64,000 nucleotides of DNA, taken from contig NC_087251.1 in assembly GCF_037042905.1 (NCBI RefSeq), forward strand, positions 40,488,001 through 40,552,000, read 5' to 3'. The notes below the pieces were generated by a model. It saw nothing but the letters and a program-made list of their open reading frames with translations, searched no databases and had not been told where the DNA came from. The stretch is from Lytechinus pictus (taxonomy: Eukaryota). Position 1 is the first letter of the stretch. Each line of letters opens with the position of its first letter. Both the position numbers and the translations under genes were made by a program. Shown here one piece after another: positions 1 through 59,180 of this stretch.

Positions 1-3000
1 CTAGGCATTTACAGTCAGTTAAGAAACATAACTAGGCATTTACAATCAGGTAAGAAACATCTAGACATTTACATTCAGGTAAGAAACATAACTAGACATT
101 TAAAATCAGGTAAGAAACATAGCTAAACATTTAAAATCAGGTAAGAAACATAACTAGGCATTTACAATCAGGTAAGAAACATAACTAGACATTTACAATC
201 AGGTAAGAAACGTAACTAGACATTTACAATCAGGTAAGAAACATAACTAGGCATTTACAATCAGGTAAGAAACATAACTAAACATTTACAGTCAGTTAAG
301 AAACATAACTAGGCAATTACAATCAGGTAAGAAACATCTAGACATTTACATTCAGGTAAGAAACATAACTAGACATTTAAAATCAGGTAAGAAACATAGC
401 TAAACATTTAAAATCAGGTAAGAAACATAACTAGGCATTTACAATCAGGTAAGAAACATAACTAGACATATACAATCAGGTAAGAAATGTAACTAGGCAT
501 TTACAATCAGGTAAGAAACATAACTAGGCATTTACAATCAGGTAAGAAACATAACTAGGCATTTACAATCAGGTAAGAAACATAACTAGGCATTTACAAT
601 CAGGTAAGAAACATCTAGACATTTACATTCAGGTAAGAAACATAACTAGACATTTAAAATCAGGTAATAAACATAGCTAAACATTTAAAATTAGGTAAGA
701 AACATAACTAGGCATTTACAGTCAGTTAAGAAACATAACTAGGCATTTACAATCAGGTAAGAAACATCTAGACATTTACATTCAGGTAAGAAACATAACT
801 AGACATTTAAAATCAGGTAAGAAACATAGCTAAACATTTAAAATCAGGTAAGAAACATAACTAGGCATTTACAATCAGGTAAGAAACATAACTAGACATT
901 TACAATCAGGTAAGAAACGTAACTAGACATTTACAATCAGGTAAGAAACATAACTAGGCATTTACAATCAGGTAAGAAACATAACTAAACATTTACAGTC
1001 AGTTAAGAAACATAACTAGGCATTTACAATCAGGTAAGAAACATCTAGACATTTACATTCAGGTAAGAAACATAACTAGACATTTAAAATCAGGTAAGAA
1101 ACATAACTAGACATTTAAAATCAGGTAAGAAACATAGCTAAACATTTAAAATCAGGTAAGAAACATAACTAGGCATTTACAATCAGGTAAGAAACATAAC
1201 TAGACATTTACAATCAGGTAAGAAACGTAACTAGACATTTACAATCAGGTAAGAAACATAACTAGGCATTTACAATCAGGTAAGAAACATAACTAAACAT
1301 TTACAGTCAGTTAAGAAACATAACTAGGCATTTACAATCAGGTAAGAAACATCTAGACATTTACATTCAGGTAAGAAACATAACTAGACATTTAAAATCA
1401 GGTAAGAAACATAGCTAAACATTTAAAATCAGGTAAGAAACATAACTAGGCATTTACAATCAGGTAAGAAACATAACTAGACATATACAATCAGGTAAGA
1501 AATGTAACTAGGCATTTACAATCAGGTAAGAAACATAACTAGGCATTTACAATCAGGTAAGAAACATAACTAGGCATTTACAATCAGGTAAGAAACATAA
1601 CTAGGCATTTACAATCAGGTAAGAAACATCTAGACATTTACATTCAGGTAAGAAACATAACTAGACATTTAAAATCAGGTAATAAACATAGCTAAACATT
1701 TAAAATTAGGTAAGAAACATAACTAGGCATTTACAGTCAGTTAAGAAACATAACTAGGCATTTACAATCAGGTAAGAAACATCTAGACATTTACATTCAG
1801 GTAAGAAACATAACTAGACATTTAAAATCAGGTAAGAAACATAGCTAAACATTTAAAATTAGGTAAGAAACATAACTAGGCATTTACAATCAGGTAAGAA
1901 ACATAACTAGACATTTACAATCAGGTAAGAAACGTAACTAGACATTTACAATCAGGTAAGAAACATAACTAGGCATTTACAATCAGGTAAGAAACATAAC
2001 TAAACATTTACAGTCAGTTAAGAAACATAACTAGGCATTTACAATCAGGTAAGAAACATCTAGACATTTACATTCAGGTAAGAAACATAACTAGACATTT
2101 AAAATCAGGTAAGAAACATAGCTAAACATTTAAAATCAGGTAAGAAACATAACTAGGCATTTACAATCAGGTAAGAAACATAACTAGACATTTACAATCA
2201 GGTAAGAAACATAACTAGGCATTTACAGTCAGTTAAGAAACATAACTAGGCATTTACAATCAGGTAAGAAACATAACTAGACATTTACATTCAGGTAAGA
2301 AACATAACTAGACATTTACATTCAGGTAAGAAACATAACTAGACATATACAATCAGGTAAGAAACGTAACTAGGCATTTACAATCAGGTAAGAAACATAA
2401 CTAGGCATTTACAATCAGGTAAGAAACATAACTAGGCATTTACAATCAGGTAAGAAACATAACTAGGCATTTACAATCAGGTAAGAAACATCTAGACATT
2501 TACATTCAGGTAAGAAACATAACTAGACATTTAAAATCAGGTAATAAACATAGCTAAACATTTAAAATCAGGTAAGAAACATAGCTAAACATTTAAAATC
2601 AGGTAAGAAACATAACTAGGCATTTACAATCAGGTAAGAAACGTAACTAAGCATTTACAATCAGGTAAGAAACATAACTAGACATTTACATTCAGGTAAT
2701 AAATATAACTATACATTTATAATCAGGTAAGAAACATAACGAGGCATTTACAATCAGGTAAGAAACATAACTAGGCATTTACAATCAGGTAAAAAACATA
2801 ACTAGGCATTTACAATCAGGTAAGAAACATAACTAGGCATTTACAATCAGGTAAGAAACATAACTAGACATTTACAATCAGGTAAGAAACATAACTAGGC
2901 ATTTACAATCAGGTAAGAAACATAACTAGGCATTTACAATCAGGTAAGAAACATAACTAGACACTTACAATCAGGTAAGAAACATAACTAGGCATTTACA

Positions 3001-3885
3001 ATCAGGTAAGAAACATCTAGACATTTACATTCAGGTAAGAAACATAACTAGTCATTTAAAATCAGGTAAGAAACATAACTAGACATTTACATTCAGGTAA
3101 GAAACATAACTAGACATTTTCAATCAGGTAAGAAACATAATTAGACATTTACATTCAGGTAAGAAACATAACTAGGCATTTACAATCAGGTAAGAAACAT
3201 AACTAGACATTTAAAATCAGGTAAGAAACATAACTAGACATTTACATTCAGGTAAAAAACATAACTAGACATTTACTATCAGGTAATAAACATAACTAGA
3301 CATTTACAATCAGGTAAGAAACATAACTAGACATTTACAATCAGGTAAGAAACATAACTAGACATTTCCAATCAGGTAAGAAACATAATTAGACATTTAC
3401 ATTCAGGTAAGAAACATAACTAGACATTTACAATCAGGTAAGGATCATAATTAGACATTTACATTCAGGTAAGAAACATAACTAGACATTTACAATCAGG
3501 TAAGAAACGTAACTAGACATTTACAATCAGGTAAGAAACATAACTAGGCATTTACAATCAGGTAAGAAACATAACTAGACATTTTCAATCAGGTAAGAAA
3601 CATAATTAGACATTTACATTCAGGTAAGAAACATAATTAGACATATACAGTCAGGTAAGAAACATAACTAGACATTTACAATCAGGTAAGAAACATAACT
3701 AGACATTTACAATCAGGTAAGAAACATAACTAGACATTTACAATCAGGTAAGAAACATACCTAGACATTTACAATCAGGTAAAAAGCATAACTAGACATT
3801 TATAATCAGGTAAGAAACATAACTAGACATTTACAATCAGGTAAGAAACATAACTAGACATTTACATTCAGGTAAGAAACATAAC
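1..3885 (+). repeat. 31-bp tandem satellite (consensus CTAG(G/A)CATTTACAATCAGGTAAGAAACATAA), ~125 units, continuing beyond window start; probably intronic in RCE1
   Basis: Unit read directly. 29-bp deletion variants (AAACATCTAG) and recurring variants (GTCAGTTAAG at 14, 291, 721, 998, 1306, 1736, 2013, 2228) show higher-order periodicity. Frequent TAA/TAG; no ORF in the track. Confidence 0.97.
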
Positions 3886-3978: not shown

Positions 3979-4965
3979 TTTTTGTCTCACCTGCATAGCA
4001 GAGTGAGACTATAGGCGCCGCTTTTCCGACGGCGACGGCGACGGCGGCGGCGGCGACGGCGGCGGCGACGGCGGCGTCAACACCAAATCTTAACCTGAGG
4101 TTAAGTTTTTGAAATGACAGCATAACTTAGAAAGTATATGGACCTAGTTCATGAAACTTAGCCATAAGGTTAATCAAGTATTACTGAACATCCTGCCTGA
4201 GTTTCATGTCACATGACTAAGGTCAAAGGTCATTTAGGGTCAATGAACTTAGACCATGTTGGGGGAATCAACATCAAAATCTTAACCTAAGGTTAAGTTT
4301 TTGAAATGTCATCATAACTTAGAAAATATATGGACCTAGTTCATGAAACTTATACATAAGGTTAATCAAGTATCACTGAACATCCTGCATGAGTTTCACG
4401 TCACATGACCAAGGTCAAAGGTCATTTAGGGTCAATGAACTTTGGCCGAATTGGGGGTATCTGTTGAATTACCATCATAACTTTGAAAGTTTATGGATCT
4501 GATTCATGAAACTTGGACATAATAGTAATCAAGTATTACTGAACATCCTGTGCAAGTTTCAGGTCACATGATCAAGGTCAAAGGTCATTTAGGGTCAATG
4601 AACTTTGGCCAAATTGGGGTATTTGTTGAATTACAGCCATAAATTTGAAAGTGTGTTGGTCTAGTTCATAAAACTTGGACATAATAGTAATCAAGTATCA
4701 CTGAACATCCTGTGCGAGTTTCAGGTCACATGATCAAGGTCAAAGGTCATGTAAGGTCAAAGAACTTTGGCCACGTTGGGGGTATTTTTTTAATTGCCAT
4801 CATATCTCTATAAGTGTATTGGTCTAGTTCATAAAACGTGGAAATAAGAGTAACCAAGTATCACTGAACATCTTGTGCGAGTTATAGTAGTTTTCAAAAT
4901 CAGCACTGCTGCTATATTGAATCGCGTGATGCAGGTGAGACGGCCAGAGGCATTCCACTTGTTTT
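3979..4965 (+). mobile_element. Helentron-associated (HINE/DINE-1-like) non-autonomous element, apparently full length
   Basis: Subterminal inverted repeats GTCTCACCTGCAT (3984-3996) and ATGCAGGTGAGAC (4929-4941); short internal IR GTGAGAC (4003-4009); GGC/GAC microsatellite; ~162-190-bp internal tandem units; T-runs at both ends. Further copies occur in the window. Confidence 0.7.
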
Positions 4966-5134: not shown

Positions 5135-5215
5135 GGATTGTCACTATGCGAGCATTTGGGTGTACGAAGTCAAGGTCTTCTAGCTGCCATCACTGTGCCA
5201 TTAGTCTTAACTATG
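5135..5215 (+). CDS. RCE1: CAAX prenyl protease 2 internal exon (GLSLCEHLGVRSQGLLAAITVPLVLTM)
   Basis: tttcag/gtgag boundaries, 81 nt, phase 0-0; resembles RCE1 '[21 protein letters not shown]'. Confidence 0.88.
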
Positions 5216-5358
5216 GTGAGATACATAGTATATATTAAATGGAGGGATAAATTAAGAGAAAGACGGGAGCTATGTTCTTCTCACAGTTCATGAGTTATGA
5301 AATATTAGGAGGACAAAGATTATTATCACTCTGGAATATTCATGAATTTGGCCATTAA

Positions 5359-6927
5359 CCCTAAAAGGGCCGGGGGGCAAAATTTGCCCCCCCCCCCTCT
5401 ACATTTTTCATGATAATCCGCCACACAAAATTTTTCAACCGCGCCGCATGCCGACATTTTAATTTCAATATCTCGCACAACTTCTGAGACCAAATTTGCG
5501 ATTTCCCTGTTCACGCCACTTAGGGTGGCTTTTCTCATGGGTTACGCCATTTAGGGTTGCAAATTTAGTTAATGTAGTTACGCCATTTAGGGTGCATTTC
5601 TGATGTTGTCGGACATGGGTGGGTAGCAGTCCATGTGGAGAGTGACCCCTCCCCCCGGACCCAAAGCTGCTCAAAAACGTGAATTCATGTACAAATCCAA
5701 TGCAATGCAAATTGTGTATTTAGCCAAAATTTATAAATGTATCATTATTTCTACTTTTACTGATTAAACTTAATTAATTTTGTCGTGTTTATGATCAGAA
5801 TCAAGTCTGCAAAAAATTCCATTAAAAAAAAAACAATAAAAAAAGTTGAAAAACAGAGAAATAAATAAGAAAATTTAAAAACAATAAAATGCATTAAAAA
5901 AAAATTGTGATACCTAATAAAAAAACCAAAACATTTGATCAGGATCCTACAAAGAGTCTGTGAACAAAAATTAGCAGTTTTGGGGCCGTATGATAGTTGA
6001 TTAGAGCATGGACCTATGAAAGCTGGACATTCATCGGTTAGTTAATGAATTCACTAACATCTGACTGTCATTGTCATGTGAATAACATTCTCTTCATATT
6101 TATCTCCTGTGATACCATCATGGTCGCCGTCAATTAAACCATGAGTTACAGAAGCTTTCGGTGATTAGACATTTAACATTAGACAAATTGTATGCGCAGA
6201 AGGTAATAAATTACCTGAATTCTCGGAAATTAATGTGCAGTTCTGGTTTACAAATGGTTATCTTAGTTCCATGGTTTTTATTTGGAAAAATGTATGAATA
6301 TTTCAAGATAGAGGCTAAAATGAAATTGACTGATTGTAATTTATAATCAAATTTTAAAGATTTCCTCATAATATTCCAGAGAAACATGGTGGGTTTCTTG
6401 TAGGGGTCGTCCCCCTCTCGTTAGAAAAGTCATTATGAGTGTGCAGAAGCGTGCAAATCGATAATGATAAATTTGATATCACAAAAATCGTCTGCTTCTC
6501 AATTTGCTGTTCCAAATCTGAAACATCTTAATTGAAAGGTATAATCTGCTACAAGACATCAGCCAACAAACGGCAAACATAGCGAAACATTCCTTTGTGA
6601 AGATCAGATTCGCCTTGGTAGTCGCTATTGTCAAAGCACCTGTATGTTATCATTAATATGCACATAATCAGGAGACGGCGACTATGATTGCATCAAAAGA
6701 ATGATCGCGTTAATTGTCCATTTCTTATAGGTCCATGATTAGAGCAAATGTTTTAATTCATGCATAGATTTGCATAATTAATTCATTAAATGAAAAATCT
6801 TATTTAAAAAAATTAACCATACAGCCTTGTAGATTTTATTGCACACTAACACTTTGCAAATTTTCGCAGCACTCGTGCGATCGAAGGCTGAGATCTCAGG
6901 GGGGGGGCGGAATCCGGGTTTATAGGA
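5359..6927. mobile_element. piggyBac-like MITE containing a nested insertion
   Basis: TTAA at 5355-5358 and 6928-6931; ends CCCTAAAAGGGCCGG ... CCGGGTTTATAGGA (imperfect TIR). Confidence 0.6.
6007..6737. mobile_element. P-element-like MITE nested in the piggyBac-like element
   Basis: ~23-bp imperfect TIR CATGGACCTAT...ATAGGTCCATG; duplicated flank ATTAGAG (6000-6006, 6738-6744). TSD could be read as 7, 9 or 11 bp because the boundary is ambiguous. Confidence 0.65.
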
Positions 6928-7023
6928 TTAATAGGAGAAGAGTAGGCACAAGGGATGCATTTTTTGTCTATAAACTATTATAGGCGCCGCTTTTTTGACG
7001 GCGGTGTCAACATCAAATCTTAA

Positions 7024-7616
7024 AGGTCAAGTCCACCACAGAAAAAAGTTGATTTGAATAAGTAGAGAAAAATCAAACATGAATAACGCTGAAAACTTCA
7101 TCAAAATCGGATGTAAAATAAGAAAGTTATAACATTTTAAAGTTTTGCTCATTTTTCACAAAACAGTTCTATGCTCAACTCAGTGATATGCAAATGAGAG
7201 AGTCGATGATGTCACCCACTCACTATTTCTTTTGTTATTGTTTGAATAATACAATATTTCAATTTTTACGAATTCGACAATAAGGACCCCTTTGCTTGAA
7301 CCACAAAATGTTAAAATAATGGAATTAAATGTGTTCAGGGAGGAATGAAACTTTGTTTCACATGACAATGACGAGAAAATCAAAATATTTCATATAATAA
7401 AATACAAAAGAAATAGTGAGTGGATGATGTCATCGGTCCCCTCATTAGCATACCGACCAGGATGTGCATATAACTGTTTTAGTGAAATTAAGCGAAACTT
7501 TAAAATGTCATAACTTTCTTATTTTTCATTTGATTTTCATGAAATTTTCAGTGTTATGCTTGTTGGATTTTTCTCCTTTTGTTCAAATCAACGTTTTGTT
7601 GGGGTGGACTTGTCCT
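7024..7616. mobile_element. Kolobok-like MITE (~600 bp); abuts a 5' HINE fragment at ~6960-7020
   Basis: TTAA on both sides (7020-7023, 7617-7620), AGG...CCT termini, long imperfect TIRs; multiple family copies in window. Confidence 0.8.
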
Positions 7617-7965
7617 TTAAACTATATGGTGTGATTCAGAGAGATGGGGGGTGTAATATTAAGTAGGTGGTATTTGTATGGAGAGCTTGAACATAATTAA
7701 GACTACCTTATGAGTACAGTATGAACATCCATGTGCTGAAACTGACAATGCTATCCCCAATGGCATAAAGAGATACATTTAATTTAGAACTGAAATCTGA
7801 ATTAATTTATTTTATCCTATTCTAATACCCTGTTGTAGAAGAAAATGTTGTTTCACCAATTACCTAAACATTAGAAAGTGAGAGATTTATGATTTAATGA
7901 TCCTCGTAATGACAACTATAATCGAAAATAAGATTAAACAAAACATTTATTCTGAGCACATGGTC

Positions 7966-10900
7966 TATGAGGCGCCGAATGTACCATTATTATATAGAAC
8001 AATTATTTGTTATATAATCATTATTTATTAAATAATAACTATTATTTATATATAATTAACATTTTATTTGTAAATAACTACTATTATATAAAATATCATT
8101 TCTAATTATTTATATATAATTCCAAGTAATACTTCATTATTTGTAAATAATAATAGTTCGACATTCCATTATTTATAAATAATGATTATTTGTTTTTCAT
8201 TATTTATAAATAATGATTATTTGTTTTTCATTATTTATAAATAATGATTATTTGTTTTTCATTATTTATAAATAATGATTATTTGTTTTTCATTATTTAT
8301 AAATAATGATTATTTGTTTTTCATTATTTACAAATAATGATTATTTGTTTTTCATTATTTATAAATAATTTGTTGAGTTTTCCATTATTTATAAATAATG
8401 ATTATTTGTTAAATAATGAAAACGTCTACTTCATTATTTATAAATAATTTTTTCGAGTGCACCATTATTCTCATTATTTATAAATAATCATTATTTAATG
8501 TTCGAGTTTTCCATTATTTATAAATAAAGATTATTTGTTAAATAATGAAATATCTACTTCATTATTTATAAAGAATAATTTTGTTTCAATATCCCATTAT
8601 TTATAAATAATCATTATTTATAAACAATTTTTACAGTTTGCCATTATATACAAATAATCATTATTTATATACAAATAACCATTATTTATTAAATAATGCC
8701 ATTATTTATTAAATAATGCCATTATTTATTAAATAATGGAAAACTCGCTATAACATGCAAATGTGGGACCGCCCATGATATGAATATTCATGATGCGATT
8801 TCCTTTTTCGTGATTTTTCTTCACAAATTTTTGTCCATTTCCTCTTCATAATGACATTTCTTGAAGCAATTTTCTAGGGATATGGTCTGATTGTAATATT
8901 CTTCATTTTCTATATAACTTCGTCTTCGTAGAAATATCAAAAAGTGTAATTTTATACGATTTTTCCTACAGTTCACAATCCCCATAGGCGCGCGTGTACG
9001 GTAGGGACAACCGGTGAATCGACGGAGTGCTCTTCATCGAAATACTACGTTGGTTGGTCCCCGGAAGTGGCGGGCGGAATTTAGCCCGAATCCTCGATGG
9101 AAGTCGATCAAGTGCATATGAGCTGAGAGAGTGAAATATCAGTGTACTTGTACAGGCCCTTCTACTTTTTATAAATATTTCTTGTTGCTTTTTTTGTTAA
9201 GTTAATTTTTCCTGGTGTAGAGATAAGTTTCAGTTCTAATAATGCACTTCAAATACATTTTGGAGTGTCTGTTTGAGGCGTTTGGGGCGATTTCACCCTG
9301 GCCCCAAAATGCTCGCAACGACAATACGGGGGCATGATGACCCCTAAATTTTTAAAAACTTATTTTTCTATTGAAAATTATCACAAAATTCACCAAAAGT
9401 GTGCACGAAAGCCTTCGTATTTCACTTTTAAAACTCCAAAAAGTGCCCAAATGACAAGCTTGGTCGCTTCGCTGTGTCGCTTTCAACTTGAGAACGTTTA
9501 CGCGTCTGCTCCCCCCCCCTCCTCCGAAAGAAATTCTGTATACGGCCATGCTCTAAAGAGCCTGGCACATTGATTTATGTATACTTTCATTTTCATTATT
9601 TTTATCTCATTATCAACATGGCCTTACGCAGAATTTTTTCCAGGGGGGCCGGGGCCGGAGCATGACGCGCGTAAACTTTCTCAAAAAAATCTTGAAAGCG
9701 AGACAGCCACGGGACCATGTAAACCCAAATGACAAGCTTTGTCGCTTCGCTGTCTCGCTTTCAACTTGAGAACGTTTACACGCGTCTGCCCCCACCCCCC
9801 GAAAGAAATTCTGTGAACAGCCATGCTCAAAAGAGCATATGGCACATTGATTTATATGTACTTTTCATTTTCATTATTTTTATCACATTATCATCATGGC
9901 CTTACACAGAATTTTTACCGGGGGGGGGGGGGGCAGCTAGGACGCGCGTAAAGTTTCTCAAAAAAATCTTGAAAGCGAGACAGCGACGCGACCAAGCTCA
10001 AATGACAAGCTTGGTCGCTTCGCTTTCTCAAGATTTTTATGAGAAAGTTTACGCGCGTCCTGCTCCGCGCCCCCCACCCCCCCCCCCCCCGGAAAAAATT
10101 CTGCGTAAGGCCATGATGATAATGAGATAAAAATAATGAAAATGAAGTATACATAAATCAATGTGCCAGGCTCTTTAGAGCATGGCCGTATACAGAATTT
10201 CTTTCGGAGGAGGGGGGGGGGGGAAGCAGACGCGTAAACGTTCTCAAGTTGAAAGCGACACAGCGAAGCGACCAAGCTTGTCATTTGGGCACTTTTTGGA
10301 GTTTTAAAAGTGAAATACGAAGGCTTTCGTGCACACTTTTGGTGAATTTTGTGATAATTTTCAATAGAAAAATAAGTTTTTAAAAAATTAGGGGTCATCA
10401 TGCCCCCGTATTGTCGTTGCGAGCATTTTGGGGCCAGGGTGAAATCGCCCCAAACGCCTCAAACAGACACTCCAAAATGTATTTGAAGTGCATTATTAGA
10501 ACTGAAACTTATTTCTACACCAGGAAAAATTAACTTAACATTAACAAAAAAAGCAACAAGAAATATTTATAAAAAGTAGAAGGGCCTGTACAAGTACACT
10601 GATATTTCACTCTCTCAGCTCATATGCACTTGATCGACTTCCATCGAGGATTCGGGCTAAATTCCGCCCGCCACTTCCGGGGACCAACCAACGTAGTATT
10701 TCGATGAAGAGCACTCCGTCGATTCACCGGTTGTCCCTACCGTACACGCGCGCCTATGGGGATTGTGAACTGTAGGAAAAATCGTATAAAATTACACTTT
10801 TTGATATTTCTACGAAGACGAAGTTATATAGAAAATGAAGAATATTACAATCAGACCATATCCCTAGAAAATTGCTTCAAGAAATGTCATTATGAAGAGG

Positions 10901-11826
10901 AAATGGACAAAAATTTGTGAAGAAAAATCACGAAAAAGGAAATCGCATCATGAATATTCATATCATGGGCGGTCCCATATTTGCATGTTATAGCGAGTTT
11001 TCCATTATTTAATAAATAATGGCATTATTTAATAAATAATGGCATTATTTAATAAATAATGGCATTATTTAATAAATAATGGTTATTTGTATATCAATAA
11101 TGATTATTTGTATATAATGGCAAACTGTAAAAATTGTTTATAAATAATGATTATTTATAAATAATGGGATATTGAAACAAAATTATTATTTATAAATAAT
11201 GAAGTAGATATTTCATTATTTAACAAATAATCTTTATTTATAAATAATGGAAAACTCGAACATTAAATAATGATTATTTATAAATAATGAGAATAATGGT
11301 GCACTCGAAAAAATTATTTATAAATAATGAAGTAGACGTTTTCATTATTTAACAAATAATCATTATTTATAAATAATGGAAAACTCAACAAATTATTTAT
11401 AAATAATGAAAAACAAATAATCATTATTTATAAATAATGAAAAACAAATAATCATTATTTGTAAATAATGAAAAACAAATAATCATTATTTATAAATAAT
11501 GAAAAACAAATAATCATTATTTATAAATAATGAAAAACAAATAATCATTATTTATAAATAATGAAAAACAAATAATCATTATTTATAAATAATGAAAAAC
11601 AAATAATCATTATTTATAAATAATGGAATGTCGAACTATTATTATTTACAAATAATGAAGTATTACTTGGAATTATATATAAATAATTAGAAATGATATT
11701 TTATATAATAGTAGTTATTTACAAATAAAATGTAAATTATATATAAATAATAGTTATTATTTAATAAATAATGATTATATAACAAATAATTGTTCTATAT
11801 AATATTGGTACATTCGGCGCCTCATA
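7966..11826. mobile_element. Foldback-type non-autonomous DNA transposon, 3861 bp, with ~1.75-kb near-identical inverted arms and IS3EU-like ends
   Basis: Termini TATGAGGCGCCGAATGTACC / GGTACATTCGGCGCCTCATA; exact 6-bp TSD ATGGTC (7960-7965, 11827-11832); arms ~7966-9700 and ~10020-11826; no transposase ORF. Confidence 0.9.
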
Positions 11827-34420: not shown

Positions 34421-34652
34421 CTGTCAATTTCAGCGAGATCGAGCTCACTTGTTGCGCAACTTCAGACGCAGACGGTAGCAGTAATAAACAGTGTTTTTGG
34501 AATCGAGCTCGTCGACGTACATGTAGTTGCGACATATGGAAAGTAAACGAGACTTTCAACGGTAATTTACGGTGAAGAAGATTGAACTGCATAAATTGAT
34601 TCATTAACTTTGCTTGGTTACTTTGCTGATCTTCCAAGGAAATAAGTTCAAC

Positions 34653-35867
34653 ATGCATCAGTATACTGAAGTGGAGAAGCTTCGCGCTGGCTATTTCGGC
34701 ATTGAATATAAATACAGAGAGAGGGGTATCAACGGAAAGGATCGACTTGGCAAACTTGTACCGGTGAGCAAGCGAGGAAAAGCCAAGTGGGTCTTGGAGC
34801 AGTACTATCGGAAGATGGTTTTAAGACTCCCAAAACACGACAACTTAGTCAAGATCAAAGCAGCTTTTTTGAACAAAGTCACCGAAGACGGCGAAGACGA
34901 GGATGATATGTTTTTATGCACAGTTTGGAAGTTATACGGTGAGAAGAGTCTAAACCTGAATGCTTATCTTCTCTCTCGTCATGACAGACTTAATGATGAT
35001 GCCTATAAATCACTGATGATGCAGTTAGCCCAAGCAATGGAACATCTTCATTCTAATGGTACCGCCCATAATGCGTTAACACCTCACAGCGTAATGATTG
35101 TCGAAGGAGTCAAAGGACAAGCCGTGGTCAAAGTAGGAGATTATGGACTGACCCAAGTATGTGGTGCAGCTTGCAGTCAGGACTATAAACCAGATGGACA
35201 ACTGCCTAGGAGTTTGGACTTTTACCTGCCTCCAGAAGCCGCCAAAGAGGGTTGGGGACATCCAGGTCAAGCCAACACCACGGCGGATATTTTCATGCTT
35301 GGACTCCTGTTCAGTGCGATGACCGAGCATACAGTACTGGAAGGAGCTGATCAAAATGAAGAGACTATTATTGCTACTTTTGTCAAGTTCCCAGGGTACG
35401 GTGCTGTGCCGATTGGAAAGTTCCTGAATACCAACCCTAGCATCAATCTTGATCATCATCTTCATAGCAAACTCAGTCCGGAGCTCCGCAGTCTGGTCCG
35501 ACGAATGACTCTCATTGACGTCGACTCTCGACCTCCGGCCAACGGCGTCATCCATATGCTGACTGCTTGCGAAGCCATTCGAGGAAACGAGAAGACAGGG
35601 GCGAATATCGAGTCGCAAACAACGACCAGGTCGTCGTCGACGTTGCCACGGAATACGACGGTGACGAGAAAGACGAGTATGAGAAAGAGAGCAGCCACCA
35701 ACCCAGCCATGTTCAACCCTTGTGTATCACCACCACAAATGCCTAGGATGAGCTCTGCATCCGTCATCAAGCCACCAGCACCAACCAAAACCAATTTCAT
35801 CAGGAAAGCATCAATGAGGGCCAACAACTACTTGAGAAGAAGTCGATCAGTCAAGATTTCAAATTGA
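34653..35867 (+). CDS. Intronless STK35/PDIK1L (NKF4)-family kinase-like protein, predicted pseudokinase, 404 aa
   Basis: First ATG in TTCAAC ATG context. Kinase subdomains recognisable (RAGYFG, RLGK, HNALTPHS, DYG, FYLPPE, ADIFMLG, RP). Family-like segments LNAYLLSR, MMQLAQAMEHLH, KVGDYGLTQVC, DFYLPPE, VPIGKFLNTNP. Confidence 0.88.
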   Translation: MHQYTEVEKLRAGYFGIEYKYRERGINGKDRLGKLVPVSKRGKAKWVLEQYYRKMVLRLPKHDNLVKIKAAFLNKVTEDGEDEDDMFLCTVWKLYGEKSLNLNAYLLSRHDRLNDDAYKSLMMQLAQAMEHLHSNGTAHNALTPHSVMIVEGVKGQAVVKVGDYGLTQVCGAACSQDYKPDGQLPRSLDFYLPPEAAKEGWGHPGQANTTADIFMLGLLFSAMTEHTVLEGADQNEETIIATFVKFPGYGAVPIGKFLNTNPSINLDHHLHSKLSPELRSLVRRMTLIDVDSRPPANGVIHMLTACEAIRGNEKTGANIESQTTTRSSSTLPRNTTVTRKTSMRKRAATNPAMFNPCVSPPQMPRMSSASVIKPPAPTKTNFIRKASMRANNYLRRSRSVKISN

Positions 35868-54942: not shown

Positions 54943-55642
54943 GCATAACATTTATTAGTATCAAACACTGCAACTCACTTTATACGTTTCATAATTTTAC
55001 ATTAAAAAATGACTTGTCATTCATGTCTGTTGGATACACCCATTTCTGCATCTAATTTAGTTTGAATAATTATTTTCTTTAGGAATGATTGACAACACTA
55101 ATTACCTTGTGCAGAATAATGTTCAGACAGAATAAGTGCCAAAGAACATCAATTAAAAAAATGGTTCAATATTCATAATACTGTTCACAGCCTTGCTTGC
55201 ATACACACAACTTTATGCAAGACTATAGTCTCCTCCTTTCCCCAATAATTTTTATTCCAAATCAGAAAAGATAGGTATCCCATCTTCAGAAATTAAGAGC
55301 CTCGTTCTTTATGAAAATCTGATTAAAAATTCAATACTTTCGGGTTTGGAATGCACTCCCATTCTACTAATAACAGTGAATTTTTGTGGGACCTGTTTTA
55401 GTGCGAAAAGGGGGCATCAATCGTCCATGTAGTTTTCTGTAACTTAATACACATGGGCTGCAAAAGAAGGGGTATCAGTAATGTGTACAAAAACACAGAA
55501 ATAACCATCAGAGTGTGATTTCATGCTTGTTTAGGCGCCCCCCTCCCCCTCTGACTCAGCCAACCACTTTCAAAACAATTACACTGCCCCAGTTACAAAC
55601 AGCCCCCCCCCCCCCTGCCCCCCAGGAATGATTATATCTTAC

Positions 55643-55816
55643 CTCAATAAGGGATCCTTTGGCATTGAAGATTAACTGATAAAAGAAGAATATAGGTATG
55701 TTGACCATGGTCATGAGGGCGAGGATCCATCCAATCATATAACCCCACCAGGGGTATACATAGGTGTTGTTATACGTCAGTGGTTTGTATTTCACCAAAC
55801 TAAAGATAAAGATTGC
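55643..55816 (-). CDS. SLC6 exon, end of TM11 to TM12 ([30 protein letters not shown]...KGSLIE)
   Basis: YKPLTY..YVYP.W..GW motif typical of GAT/TauT/CT1; cag/gtaag; 174 nt, phase 0-0. Confidence 0.95.
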
Positions 55817-56493
55817 CTGCAAAAAAAAAGGAAAATCATAACAATATAATTCAAATATTATTATTCTCATTAATATAAAACACGGTGAGGTGCTCAACTG
55901 GGGGGGGGGGGGGCACCCAGGGAAAGTGCCCCTTTTGCTTTGTTTTGATTTGTGCAATGTGCCTGACCTTTTCTAAGAAGTGCCCCTCCCCCCTTTTTCA
56001 TGTGTAATTTTTCTGCTCTGCTTTTCATAATTTTTTTTCTAAATCTGTGCATTTTCCTGTGCCCCCTCTTATATGAAATCCTGGATCCGCCCATGGATAG
56101 ACTGAGAGCAGATCTGATTTAAACGAACTAAGAAACTCATTCATATCAATTTGACTATGCTTTTCTTGCTATATTAAATCAGTCCCTTACAAGTTTTTAA
56201 GGGACTCCCCAGGGAGTGTAAGATGTGCATACATTATGTGCGGGAATGACTGATTGAATCCGATGACGGGGTAATAATATATCTGTAAAGCACTCAGACA
56301 GTCCTTCCCATGTATTAAGCGCTACATAAAAGCAAAATATTATTATTATTATTATATCATTGTCAGCCTGACAATGTCTAATCTTCCATGTCTCATATTA
56401 GATATAATGTTTATTGAGATTACATTGGAGTTGGGGAAATGATTACTCTCCAAATAAAAATTGGAAAAAAAATGTATTATTGGTTATACTCAC

Positions 56494-56999: not shown

Positions 57000-57600
57000 A
57001 GGTCAAGTCCACCTCAGAAAAAAGTTGTTTTGAATCAACAGAGAAAAATCAGACAAGATAATGCTGAAAATTTCATCAAAATCGGAAGTAAAATAAGAAA
57101 GTTATGACATTTTGAAATTTTGCTTATTTTTCACAAAATAGTTCTATGCACAAGTTAGTAACATGCATATGAGAGAATCGATGATGTCCCTCACTCACTA
57201 TTTATTTTGTTTTTATTGTTTGAATTATACAATATTTCAATTTTTACAGATTTGACAATAAGGACCAACTTGACTGAACCATATAATGTTAAGCAATGGT
57301 AACGCCACATGTTCAGTGAGAAATAAAACTTTGTTTCACAGGACAATGCGGAGAAAGTTAGAATATTTCATATTTCAAATTATAAAATACAAAAGAAAAA
57401 GTGAGTGAGTGATGTCATCAGTTCCCTCATTTGCATACCGACCAGGATGTGCATATAACTATTATGTGAAATTAAGCGAAACTTAAAAATATCATAACTT
57501 TCTTATTTTACATCCGATTTTGATGAACTTTTCAGTGTTATGCTCGTTGGATTTTTCTCTTTTTATTCAAATCAACATGTTGTTGGGGTGGACTTGTCCT
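57000..57600. mobile_element. Kolobok-like MITE in an SLC6 intron
   Basis: TTAA TSD (56996-56999, 57601-57604), AGG/CCT ends. Confidence 0.85.
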
Positions 57601-57693
57601 TTAATTTGAGTTATTATTCAAAGTACATTTAAATACAAATTATCTTCTAACGGTAAGTTTTATTTGCTATTTTTACTCATATTTCATTATATG

Positions 57694-57926
57694 CACTCTA
57701 ACTTTCAAGGATTGAATACAAATCCAGATCAGCTGTTAATAAGAAGGGACCAGTCGGAGATTGGATTTATTTTGAATCCTAAAGATTAATTTTTAAATCT
57801 CAAAGGATTTATTTGTGAACCTCAAAGAACAAATCCTCAATGTTTAAATCTAAATCTAACGTCCAACTGGTCCCTATAAACTCACAGCCGATCTCGGTTT
57901 ATTTTAAATCCTTGAAATTTAGAGTG
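57694..57926. mobile_element. Palindromic CAC..GTG MITE (CACTA/EnSpm-like)
   Basis: CACTCTAACTTTCAAGGATT / AATCCTTGAAATTTAGAGTG. Confidence 0.6.
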
Positions 57927-58150
57927 TATATTTGTGAAAGTCCATTATTTTCCTCACCAATCTATCAATAATAATAAGTTCATCTGGCTCTTAAAATTTG
58001 TCCATAAAATTTTGTATTGATCTCGCCTTCAATAATTATAGCTTTCCACATTAACACATGTTATCCTACCGTCTGTGTTCCACCTAATGATAACCGTGCT
58101 CTTCAATCCTTCTTATCATAATCTTCTTTCATTTCCTTCCCTATACTTAC

Positions 58151-58253
58151 CGTAAGCCCATCCGATGGTGAAGCTTTCAAACATCGACACCCAGAGAAGA
58201 ACAAAGCCACTGGCCGCATAGTAATCAAACAATTGGAAGATGTACATGCCTCC
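58151..58253 (-). CDS. SLC6 exon, TM10 ([34 protein letters not shown])
   Basis: [16 protein letters not shown] is characteristic of the GABA/taurine/creatine branch; cag/gtaag; 103 nt, phase 0-1. Confidence 0.96.
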
Positions 58254-58579
58254 CTGGATAGAGTAAGAGAGGGCATTTAATTATCAGTTAATTGCATTCT
58301 TACAGAACCACGTCTGCATTCCAAACCCCCTTTAGCCCATGAATTAAAAACATGATAGCTGCTCCAGTGTGAGTGTGCAAGGACACCAAAATACGTGACA
58401 GTGGTGTAAGGCCAATTAGTCTTGGACTTCAAGCCTGAATGTGTGCCTCTTTTTTTTTCGCCAAAAGGGGGGGGGGGGCGAAAAACAAAGTTCATCCACA
58501 CCTATGCTCTTTTATCATGCATTCAAATAAATGATAATGCTTAACGCATTATTGGTAACTAGATGTGCACTTGTTTTAA

Positions 58580-59180
58580 AGGGATGGTCCGGGCTGAAAA
58601 TATTTATAACTAAATAAATAGAGTAAAATTCACAGAGCAAAATGCTGAAAATTTCATCAAAATCGGATAACAAATAACGAAGTTATTGAATTTTAAAGTT
58701 TATCAATATTTGTGAAAACAGTTATATGCACATCGTCATGAATATTCATTAGATGGGCTGATGATGTCACATCCCCACTTTCTTTTTTTCTTATACATGT
58801 ACATGAAATCATAAATGTTTCACTTTTTCATACATGTGTAAATGATGTGTCTCCATTATGATGAAATAAGTTGCGGCAATAAAAAAACTAATGCACTTCA
58901 TCAGTTGTCAATCCAATTGATTTAGTTCTTGGTAGAAAAATGTTGAATAAACCTAATATCAAATAATAAAATACAAAAGAACAAGTTGGGATATGACATA
59001 ATCAGCCCACCTAATGAATATTCATGGGACATGCCTAGAACTGTCCGGAAATAATGCAAATCTTTAAAATTCAATAACTTTGTTATTTGTTATCCGATTT
59101 TGATCAAATTTTCAGCATTTTGCTCTGTGAATTTTACTATATTTATTGCGATATAAATATTTCCAGACTGGACCATCCCT
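58580..59180. mobile_element. Kolobok-like MITE, second subfamily; degenerate relative at ~45100-45690
   Basis: TTAA|AGGGATGGTCC ... GGACCATCCCT|TTAA with long TIRs. Confidence 0.85.

Follow-up and report, generated by a model that had tools for sequence, protein, structure and literature searches.

A young foldback DNA transposon with IS3EU/GingerRoot-type ends in an RCE1 intron of Lytechinus pictus

An intron of the housekeeping gene RCE1 (CAAX prenyl protease 2) in Lytechinus pictus contains a real foldback element that is young and non-coding, spanning 7966–11826 of the window, by which we mean the whole 64,000-nucleotide stretch analysed (assembly GCF_037042905.1, contig NC_087251.1, forward-strand positions 40,488,001 to 40,552,000). 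We think it probable that the element is a foldback DNA transposon of the non-autonomous kind that inserted recently and was most likely mobilized in trans by a DDE transposase of the IS3EU/GingerRoot group.

The entire non-autonomous element (7966–11826, no strand assigned) is 3,861 bp long, begins with TAT and ends with ATA, and 39 of its 40 outermost bases agree between the two ends. Immediately outside stands ATGGTC, at 7960–7965 and again at 11827–11832 (both +), an exact direct repeat at the boundaries and the presumptive target-site duplication (TSD). Only a length of 6 bp gave such a repeat when lengths from 2 to 12 bp were tested, and random pairs of hexamers from the window agreed by chance in 178 of 400,000 draws. 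Because ATGGTC is non-palindromic, that is, not self-complementary, it lies outside the palindrome. Alignment of 7966–9615 with 10117–11826 revealed 7 substitutions in 1,649 aligned bases (99.6% identity) and 5 gaps, among which the right arm has one additional 31-bp unit, one additional 20-bp unit and 6 bp. Arm pairing extends to about 9701/10028, affording arms of ~1.74 and ~1.80 kb around a middle of ~325 bp, and the minimum free energy (MFE) RNA structure of the element has 95% of bases paired, with 1,725 pairs joining the arms. A preliminary description of this DNA had proposed a 3,861-bp sequence that is nearly all palindrome, with near-identical arms of ~1.75 kb, a spacer of ~320 bp and an exact ATGGTC duplication; the arm alignment, MFE pairing and the single repeat length agree with it throughout.

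Five of the seven arm substitutions are transversions and none falls at a CpG, while the CpG observed-to-expected ratio is 1.05–1.17 within the element versus 0.24–0.51 in the flanking intron. We regard the element as young because the arms have diverged by 0.4% with no CpG substitution and because its inner CpG ratio is high relative to the flanks. The longest stop-to-stop frame is 166 amino acids, none of the 8 element frames submitted to Pfam reached the cut-off (best E 0.028), and an Rfam scan of the element returned no match; the proposed lack of coding capacity thus held.

To place the element beyond the assembly, the left junction (7625–8130, covering the first 165 bp of the element) was compared with contigs of four public sequencing runs, of 24 listed; the counts that follow refer to the 27 of 158 contig pieces and 22 of 46 loose contig ends displayed. 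In none of the four runs does a contig reach into the flank, contig depth beginning at about 7965, and hence no empty allele was seen. Six contigs start exactly at 7966, where run X14 has 8 loose ends. The loose ends at 7961–7966 lead into unrelated flanks in every run (five single contigs, plus 4 and 8 mixed contigs from X14). One contig of X5 matches all 165 bp with 2 differences, and X14 holds a diverged subfamily. The end is thus a feature of a multi-copy family, not the product of a chimeric read: contigs from each of the four runs start at the shared TAT or beside it, and their flanks are unrelated. The element end is therefore multi-copy under three organism labels, and its left boundary is fixed independently of the assembly.

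Giant palindromes are a known artefact of long reads, and an assembly error or chimeric fold-back read would be compatible with the fact that none of the four runs spans the junction and that the five transversions among seven arm differences could be consensus errors. Such an error does not predict what surrounds the palindrome: its symmetry ends exactly at the family end that other runs define; the flanks are no mirror images and hold RCE1 exons that follow one another in order; the TSD is direct rather than inverted; and the arms differ in repeat-unit number. Furthermore, nearly all contig depth has the right-arm base at position 8058, so the left-arm base there is private to this copy. We consider an artefact highly improbable.

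Two further configurations of the family end were seen in these runs. A contig piece of X1 (piece 6, at 7980–8027) passes from the left end directly into the final 13 bases of the right end, and from there into a new flank; it may be a ~75-bp internally deleted mini-copy or an excision remnant of the family. X1 and X2 also share, at 7972–8041, the same 1.3–1.4-kb contig from two studies, in which a 70-bp terminal piece lacking one tip base is followed by other sequence, as would be expected of a truncated or interrupted copy.

The ends provide the main clue to the mobilizing enzyme. Complete families of the little-studied IS3EU group are described as always having TA..TA termini and usually 6-bp TSDs, with IS3EU and GingerRoot forming one lineage (PMC10045372). 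Likewise, 72 of 77 GingerRoots end in TA, with terminal inverted repeats (TIRs) of 100–150 bp (PMC6839031). The present copy has both TA..TA termini and a 6-bp TSD, so that the earlier reading of TAY..RTA termini with a 6-bp TSD as an IS3EU signature agrees with the published rule. It further resembles IS3EU/GingerRoot elements in being bounded by TIRs, and non-autonomous members of that group are known. In contrast to their described TIRs of 30–150 bp, however, modular arms of ~1.75 kb fill the element, and its end reads TATGA versus the TAYGG of fungal IS3EU ends (PMC12730594). On the strength of the end signature, on which membership rests, we judge it likely that an IS3EU/GingerRoot transposase mobilized the element.

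Several points count against this assignment. It was made from the end signature, with no transposase gene inside the element; the TSD length comes from this copy alone, as no flank pair among the 22 of 46 loose ends listed gave a second TSD; and 6-bp TSDs are also made by hAT6 elements (PMC12730594). Movement by a hAT6-type or another transposase with 6-bp TSDs is accordingly the alternative to weigh, given that animal hAT families with such TSDs exist (PMC12730594), that foldbacks have arisen independently in several superfamilies (PMC4079207, PMC3169594), and that three terminal bases are a weak signature for assigning a transposase. Nevertheless, hATs usually make 8-bp TSDs and have TIRs of 10–25 bp (PMC3942097), and it is the combination of TA..TA with 6 bp that is stated as the IS3EU/GingerRoot rule (PMC10045372). 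We therefore find a hAT6-type or similar enzyme improbable, although not negligibly so. At position 3 the usual hAT end also has G, against T in the element.

Other candidates were set aside. Polinton/Maverick elements share the 6-bp TSD, but their ends begin with AG rather than TAT; Mutator-type foldbacks such as Tetris and Tm1 make TSDs of 8–10 bp rather than 6 bp; and IS481EU fits in its end pattern (TNT..AYA) but not in its TSD (~4, ~15 or ~25 bp) or its parabasalid hosts. A scan of the window for the terminal pattern recovered only the element's own two ends, and a window search for TA..TA with 6-bp repeats recovered only this element, its inner symmetric positions and (TA)n runs. Beyond the window, two metagenome-contig matches to the terminal pattern (19–20 bp) were dismissed as chance, having no further similarity or inverted partner, and viral contigs gave 0 matches. 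When the terminal 7-mer was compared with the supplement of PMC10045372 (IS3EU protein cores), the matches listed (2 of 17) were internal and unrelated. Overall, the proposal of a young non-autonomous IS3EU-like foldback family stands as to the youth, non-coding and foldback character, shared end and IS3EU signature of this element; its mobilization by an IS3EU-like transposase is likely.

The arms are modular, each comprising a 21-bp GC-balanced tip, an outer domain of ~750–800 bp (14% GC), a 705-bp unique domain and a 277-bp unit. The left tip (7966–7986, +; 21 bp, 52% GC) is common to many insertion sites and is likely the cleavage end, and the right tip (11806–11826, −) is its inverted copy. 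Behind the left tip, the left outer domain (7987–8740, +; 14% GC) is built of 31-, 129- and 20-bp tandem units and contains 15 copies, at two mismatches or fewer, of the perfect 18-bp palindrome CATTATTTATAAATAATG. The right outer domain (11001–11805, −) contains 16 copies of this motif, along with the extra 31-bp and 20-bp units. At the same threshold the motif has 0 sites elsewhere in the window. These arrays are candidate transposase-binding sites, and the TIR repeats of Galileo have been reported to hold extra transposase binding sites (PMC4079207). The left inner unique domain occupies 8741–9445 (+), with its inverted copy at 10290–11000 (−) distinguished by a 6-bp duplication at 10541–10546.

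Within the left inner domain, a CpG-rich patch at 8975–9115 (56% GC, CpG observed-to-expected ratio 1.37) looks promoter-like, and a promoter role is our guess. The patch is mirrored near 10620–10760, and each arm's patch includes the word CCGGAAGT, which we take to be ETS-like. Should each arm once have driven one of a pair of convergent genes, a promoter of the parent element would be expected in both, and the two patches could represent it.

Long modular TIRs in which an outer tandem domain is followed by an inner one, unit numbers that differ from arm to arm and a non-coding middle are shared with known foldbacks, namely Tetris of Drosophila virilis (PMC4079207), Tm1 (PMC3169594), Galileo, FB and sea-urchin TU. 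Tetris TIRs reach 1,735 bp (PMC4079207). The modular arrangement of outer tandem and inner unique sequence that had been noted from the outset is thus well supported. In contrast to the 6-bp TSD and TA ends found here, those foldbacks have 8–10-bp TSDs and Mutator- or P-type enzymes (PMC4079207, PMC3169594). Unlike them, the present element also has as its middle a self-palindromic copy of the last arm unit. Sea-urchin TU foldback elements, for their part, have an 8-bp TSD, versus 6 bp here.

The centre of the palindrome has an order of its own. Unit 1 of the 277-bp repeat (9446–9723, +) consists of halves a and b, imperfect inverted copies of each other around a ~62-bp core c, and has the look of a miniature inverted-repeat transposable element (MITE). 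Unit 2 (9724–9996, +), the 'spacer' of the preliminary description, is a self-folding direct copy of unit 1, agreeing at 236 of 267 aligned bases (88%; 9724–9996 versus 9446–9723), as that description had proposed. We refine it in one respect: the 277-bp unit is an imperfect palindrome, so the middle also folds. At the turning point (9997–10027, no strand assigned) the start of a third unit is joined via a short shared motif to an inverted b half, which opens the inverted unit b-c-a (10028–10289, −). Read from the left, the element thus consists of the arm, units 1 and 2, then ~26 bases from the beginning of a third unit, and lastly inverted b-c-a and the inverted arm. Compared with unit 1, the inverted unit matches at 109 of 109 bases in a, 60 of 61 in c and 72 of 78 in b; its b half matches unit 2 at 70 of 75 and is about equally distant from units 1 and 2. 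Differences between the arms number 8 in 1,674 bases up to 9641 versus 6 in 53 beyond (p 2e-6).

This confinement of identity loss to the innermost ~55 bp of the arms suggests that a small, older inverted repeat may have been the site of the fold-back that produced the giant palindrome. In such a scheme, breakage or copying at one end of a parent element would have proceeded as far as an inner array of self-palindromic 277-bp units; the strand would then fold back at the older small inverted repeat and copy its own left end, affording two equal ends that are still transposable. An enzyme supplied in trans would bind the array of 18-bp palindromes behind each tip, cut at the TA end and insert with a 6-bp stagger. 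Diverged, spaced inverted repeats prime fold-back in single-stranded DNA in yeast, and there, as here, such a repeat occupies the centre of a long and nearly perfect palindrome (PMC10164571). The yeast product, however, is a dicentric chromosome, whereas here, to judge from one copy, a mobile unit whose two ends are equal would result.

We favour fold-back because it would explain the two units on one side versus one on the other, the junction via shared sequence and the older innermost ~55 bp. Weighing against it, the inner divergence step is mostly a G-run, which mutates fast by itself: 4 of the 6 inner differences lie in or at this run, and with the run left out p rises to 0.019. In our estimate the chances are about even that the two-armed form goes back to a strand folding at an inverted repeat of the 277-bp array. 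The competing account involves no fold-back. The arms would be the ordinary long TIRs of an autonomous parent that lost its middle by abortive gap repair, kept alike by arm-to-arm gene conversion that is weakest beside the loop. Gene conversion likewise predicts lower identity near the loop, instability of the G-run accounts for those 4 of 6 inner differences, and the ~75-bp copy in X1 indicates that internal deletion occurs in this family. Less readily accommodated are a turning point at which shared sequence connects the beginning of a third tandem unit with half a unit in inverted orientation, the unequal unit count (two in one arm, one in the other) and the short TIRs published for IS3EU/GingerRoot, given as over 30 bp (PMC12730594) and as 100–150 bp (PMC6839031). 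We place this account somewhat short of an even chance.

A broader version of the fold-back proposal is that IS3EU/GingerRoot elements in this sea urchin routinely yield 'one-end-doubled' snap-back derivatives, for which a single-stranded DNA copy arising in transposition or gap repair would fold at a captured small inverted repeat and copy its own end. We regard this generalization as speculative and, on balance, unlikely. If true, it would make the IS3EU/GingerRoot superfamily a new and mechanistically traceable source of foldback transposons, and it would hint at a replicative (IS3-like copy-out) or single-stranded DNA step in these elements, for which the literature examined turned up no biochemical study. 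The 3.9-kb copy with its preserved turning point would then be a compact model, and the family a strong natural ADAR substrate.

Transcripts through family members would form long hairpins and, as such, would be targets for hyper-editing by ADAR; young repeats are the main ADAR editing targets in S. purpuratus (PMC9989829, PMC5625713). Of the six downstream loose ends listed for X1 and X2, three match the element except for T>C changes, which affect 11 of 17, 9 of 13 and 5 of 7 T. In total, 25 of 37 T are changed versus 0 of 33 other bases (hand count; p 5e-10). None of the four downstream loose ends in the DNA-type runs has such clusters. Counted as places of change, T>C and A>G number 12 versus 1 in X1 and X2 together, against 13 versus 12 in X14 (p 0.015), and different X1/X2 contigs disagree at the same T (e.g. 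8003, 8008 and 8011). The clusters fit the one-change-type pattern of ADAR hyper-editing on the outward-reading strand. Their contigs derive from other family members, not from the copy at the RCE1 locus. Bisulfite conversion was rejected as a cause, as it gives C to T, whereas the contigs have C where the element has T.

The clusters would alternatively mark a C-rich genomic subfamily rather than RNA editing, and part of the evidence leans that way. They lie on one strand only, although a perfect hairpin should show both. The expected 5′-neighbour bias (U/A favoured, G avoided) is not significant (24 of 33 versus 1 of 4, p 0.09). The RNA status of X1 and X2, neither of which is recorded as RNA, is a guess supported by assembly size alone; these runs carry organism label A while the DNA-type runs carry B and C, and the 24 runs listed include no DNA run of organism A as a matched control. 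A subfamily would not, however, account for the lack of any other change type in 70 bases of the X1/X2 ends or for contigs that differ at the same T, and transitions in the DNA-type runs are symmetric and scattered. X1 and X2 are moreover sized like transcriptome assemblies (88–193 M letters versus over 1,000 M for the DNA-type runs), and for S. purpuratus there are published cases of young repeats edited by ADAR (PMC9989829, PMC5625713). We consequently think a C-rich subfamily unlikely, and favour with reasonable confidence the proposal that family transcripts form long hairpins hyper-edited by ADAR. The dense single-type clusters (A to G, here T>C) resemble the documented hyper-editing of young inverted repeats in sea urchins (PMC5625713, PMC9989829); unlike it, they comprise three short contig ends on one strand and without matched DNA. 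The element in RCE1 pre-mRNA should by extension be expected to behave likewise.

As the preliminary description had recognized, the host sequence is an RCE1 intron: placement by tblastn (P0001/P0002) showed RCE1 exons ending at 5215 and resuming at 12403, defining an intron at 5216–12402 with GT/AG ends. The exons on either side lie at 5135–5215 (+) and 12403–12469 (+) and are consecutive, and the last exon of the gene has 92% identity to RCE1 of Lytechinus variegatus (5 hits, 17 candidates). Insertion into an exon, a possibility raised by the resemblance of the right flank to a splice donor, was ruled out by these consecutive exons, between which no residues are missing. The element stands 570 bp from the nearest RCE1 splice site and has more than doubled the intron, from 3.3 to 7.2 kb. 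Six AATAAA words lie on the RCE1 sense strand of the right arm (11011–11071, 11724 and 11763), and one more at 8523; those in the right arm are possible premature polyadenylation signals for RCE1.

Foldback elements, non-autonomous IS3EU elements and the editing of inverted repeats are each already known. A literature search, whose scope excluded Repbase, Dfam and subscription journals, found no foldback with IS3EU-type ends, and the one paper containing both 'IS3EU' and 'foldback' drew no link between them. The enzymes linked to foldback structure have chiefly been those of Mutator and P (PMC4079207, PMC3169594); with a foldback that has IS3EU/GingerRoot ends, an integrase-like superfamily would join them. 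Because the centre is preserved, comparison of copies could also test how long arms originate. Furthermore, the element would form a ~1.7-kb perfect double-stranded RNA in RCE1 pre-mRNA, and would serve as a test of how such insertions are tolerated; it implies no host benefit. With its ingredients known separately, the element is of interest mainly to specialists.

Other repeats and genes were observed in the window. The same RCE1 intron holds a 600-bp MITE-like element at 7020–7620 with 158-bp inverted ends (82%). A satellite of 31-bp units occupies 1–3885 in at least 126 copies (91% matches), runs past the window start and lies immediately upstream of the first RCE1 exon placed; tblastn within the window did not recover the gene's initial exons. 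Tandem 192- and 163-bp units at 4077–4883, with relatives at 12824–13027, look like a common interspersed repeat. A single 419-amino-acid open reading frame at 34608–35867, apparently without introns, encodes a protein-kinase domain (PF00069, E 2e-16), and an exon of a sodium:neurotransmitter symporter (SNF family, E 5e-11) lies on the minus strand at 55556–55972. Finally, nested degraded inverted repeats at 57044–59135 (177 bp at 72% and 87 bp at 78%) are probably an old TIR element.

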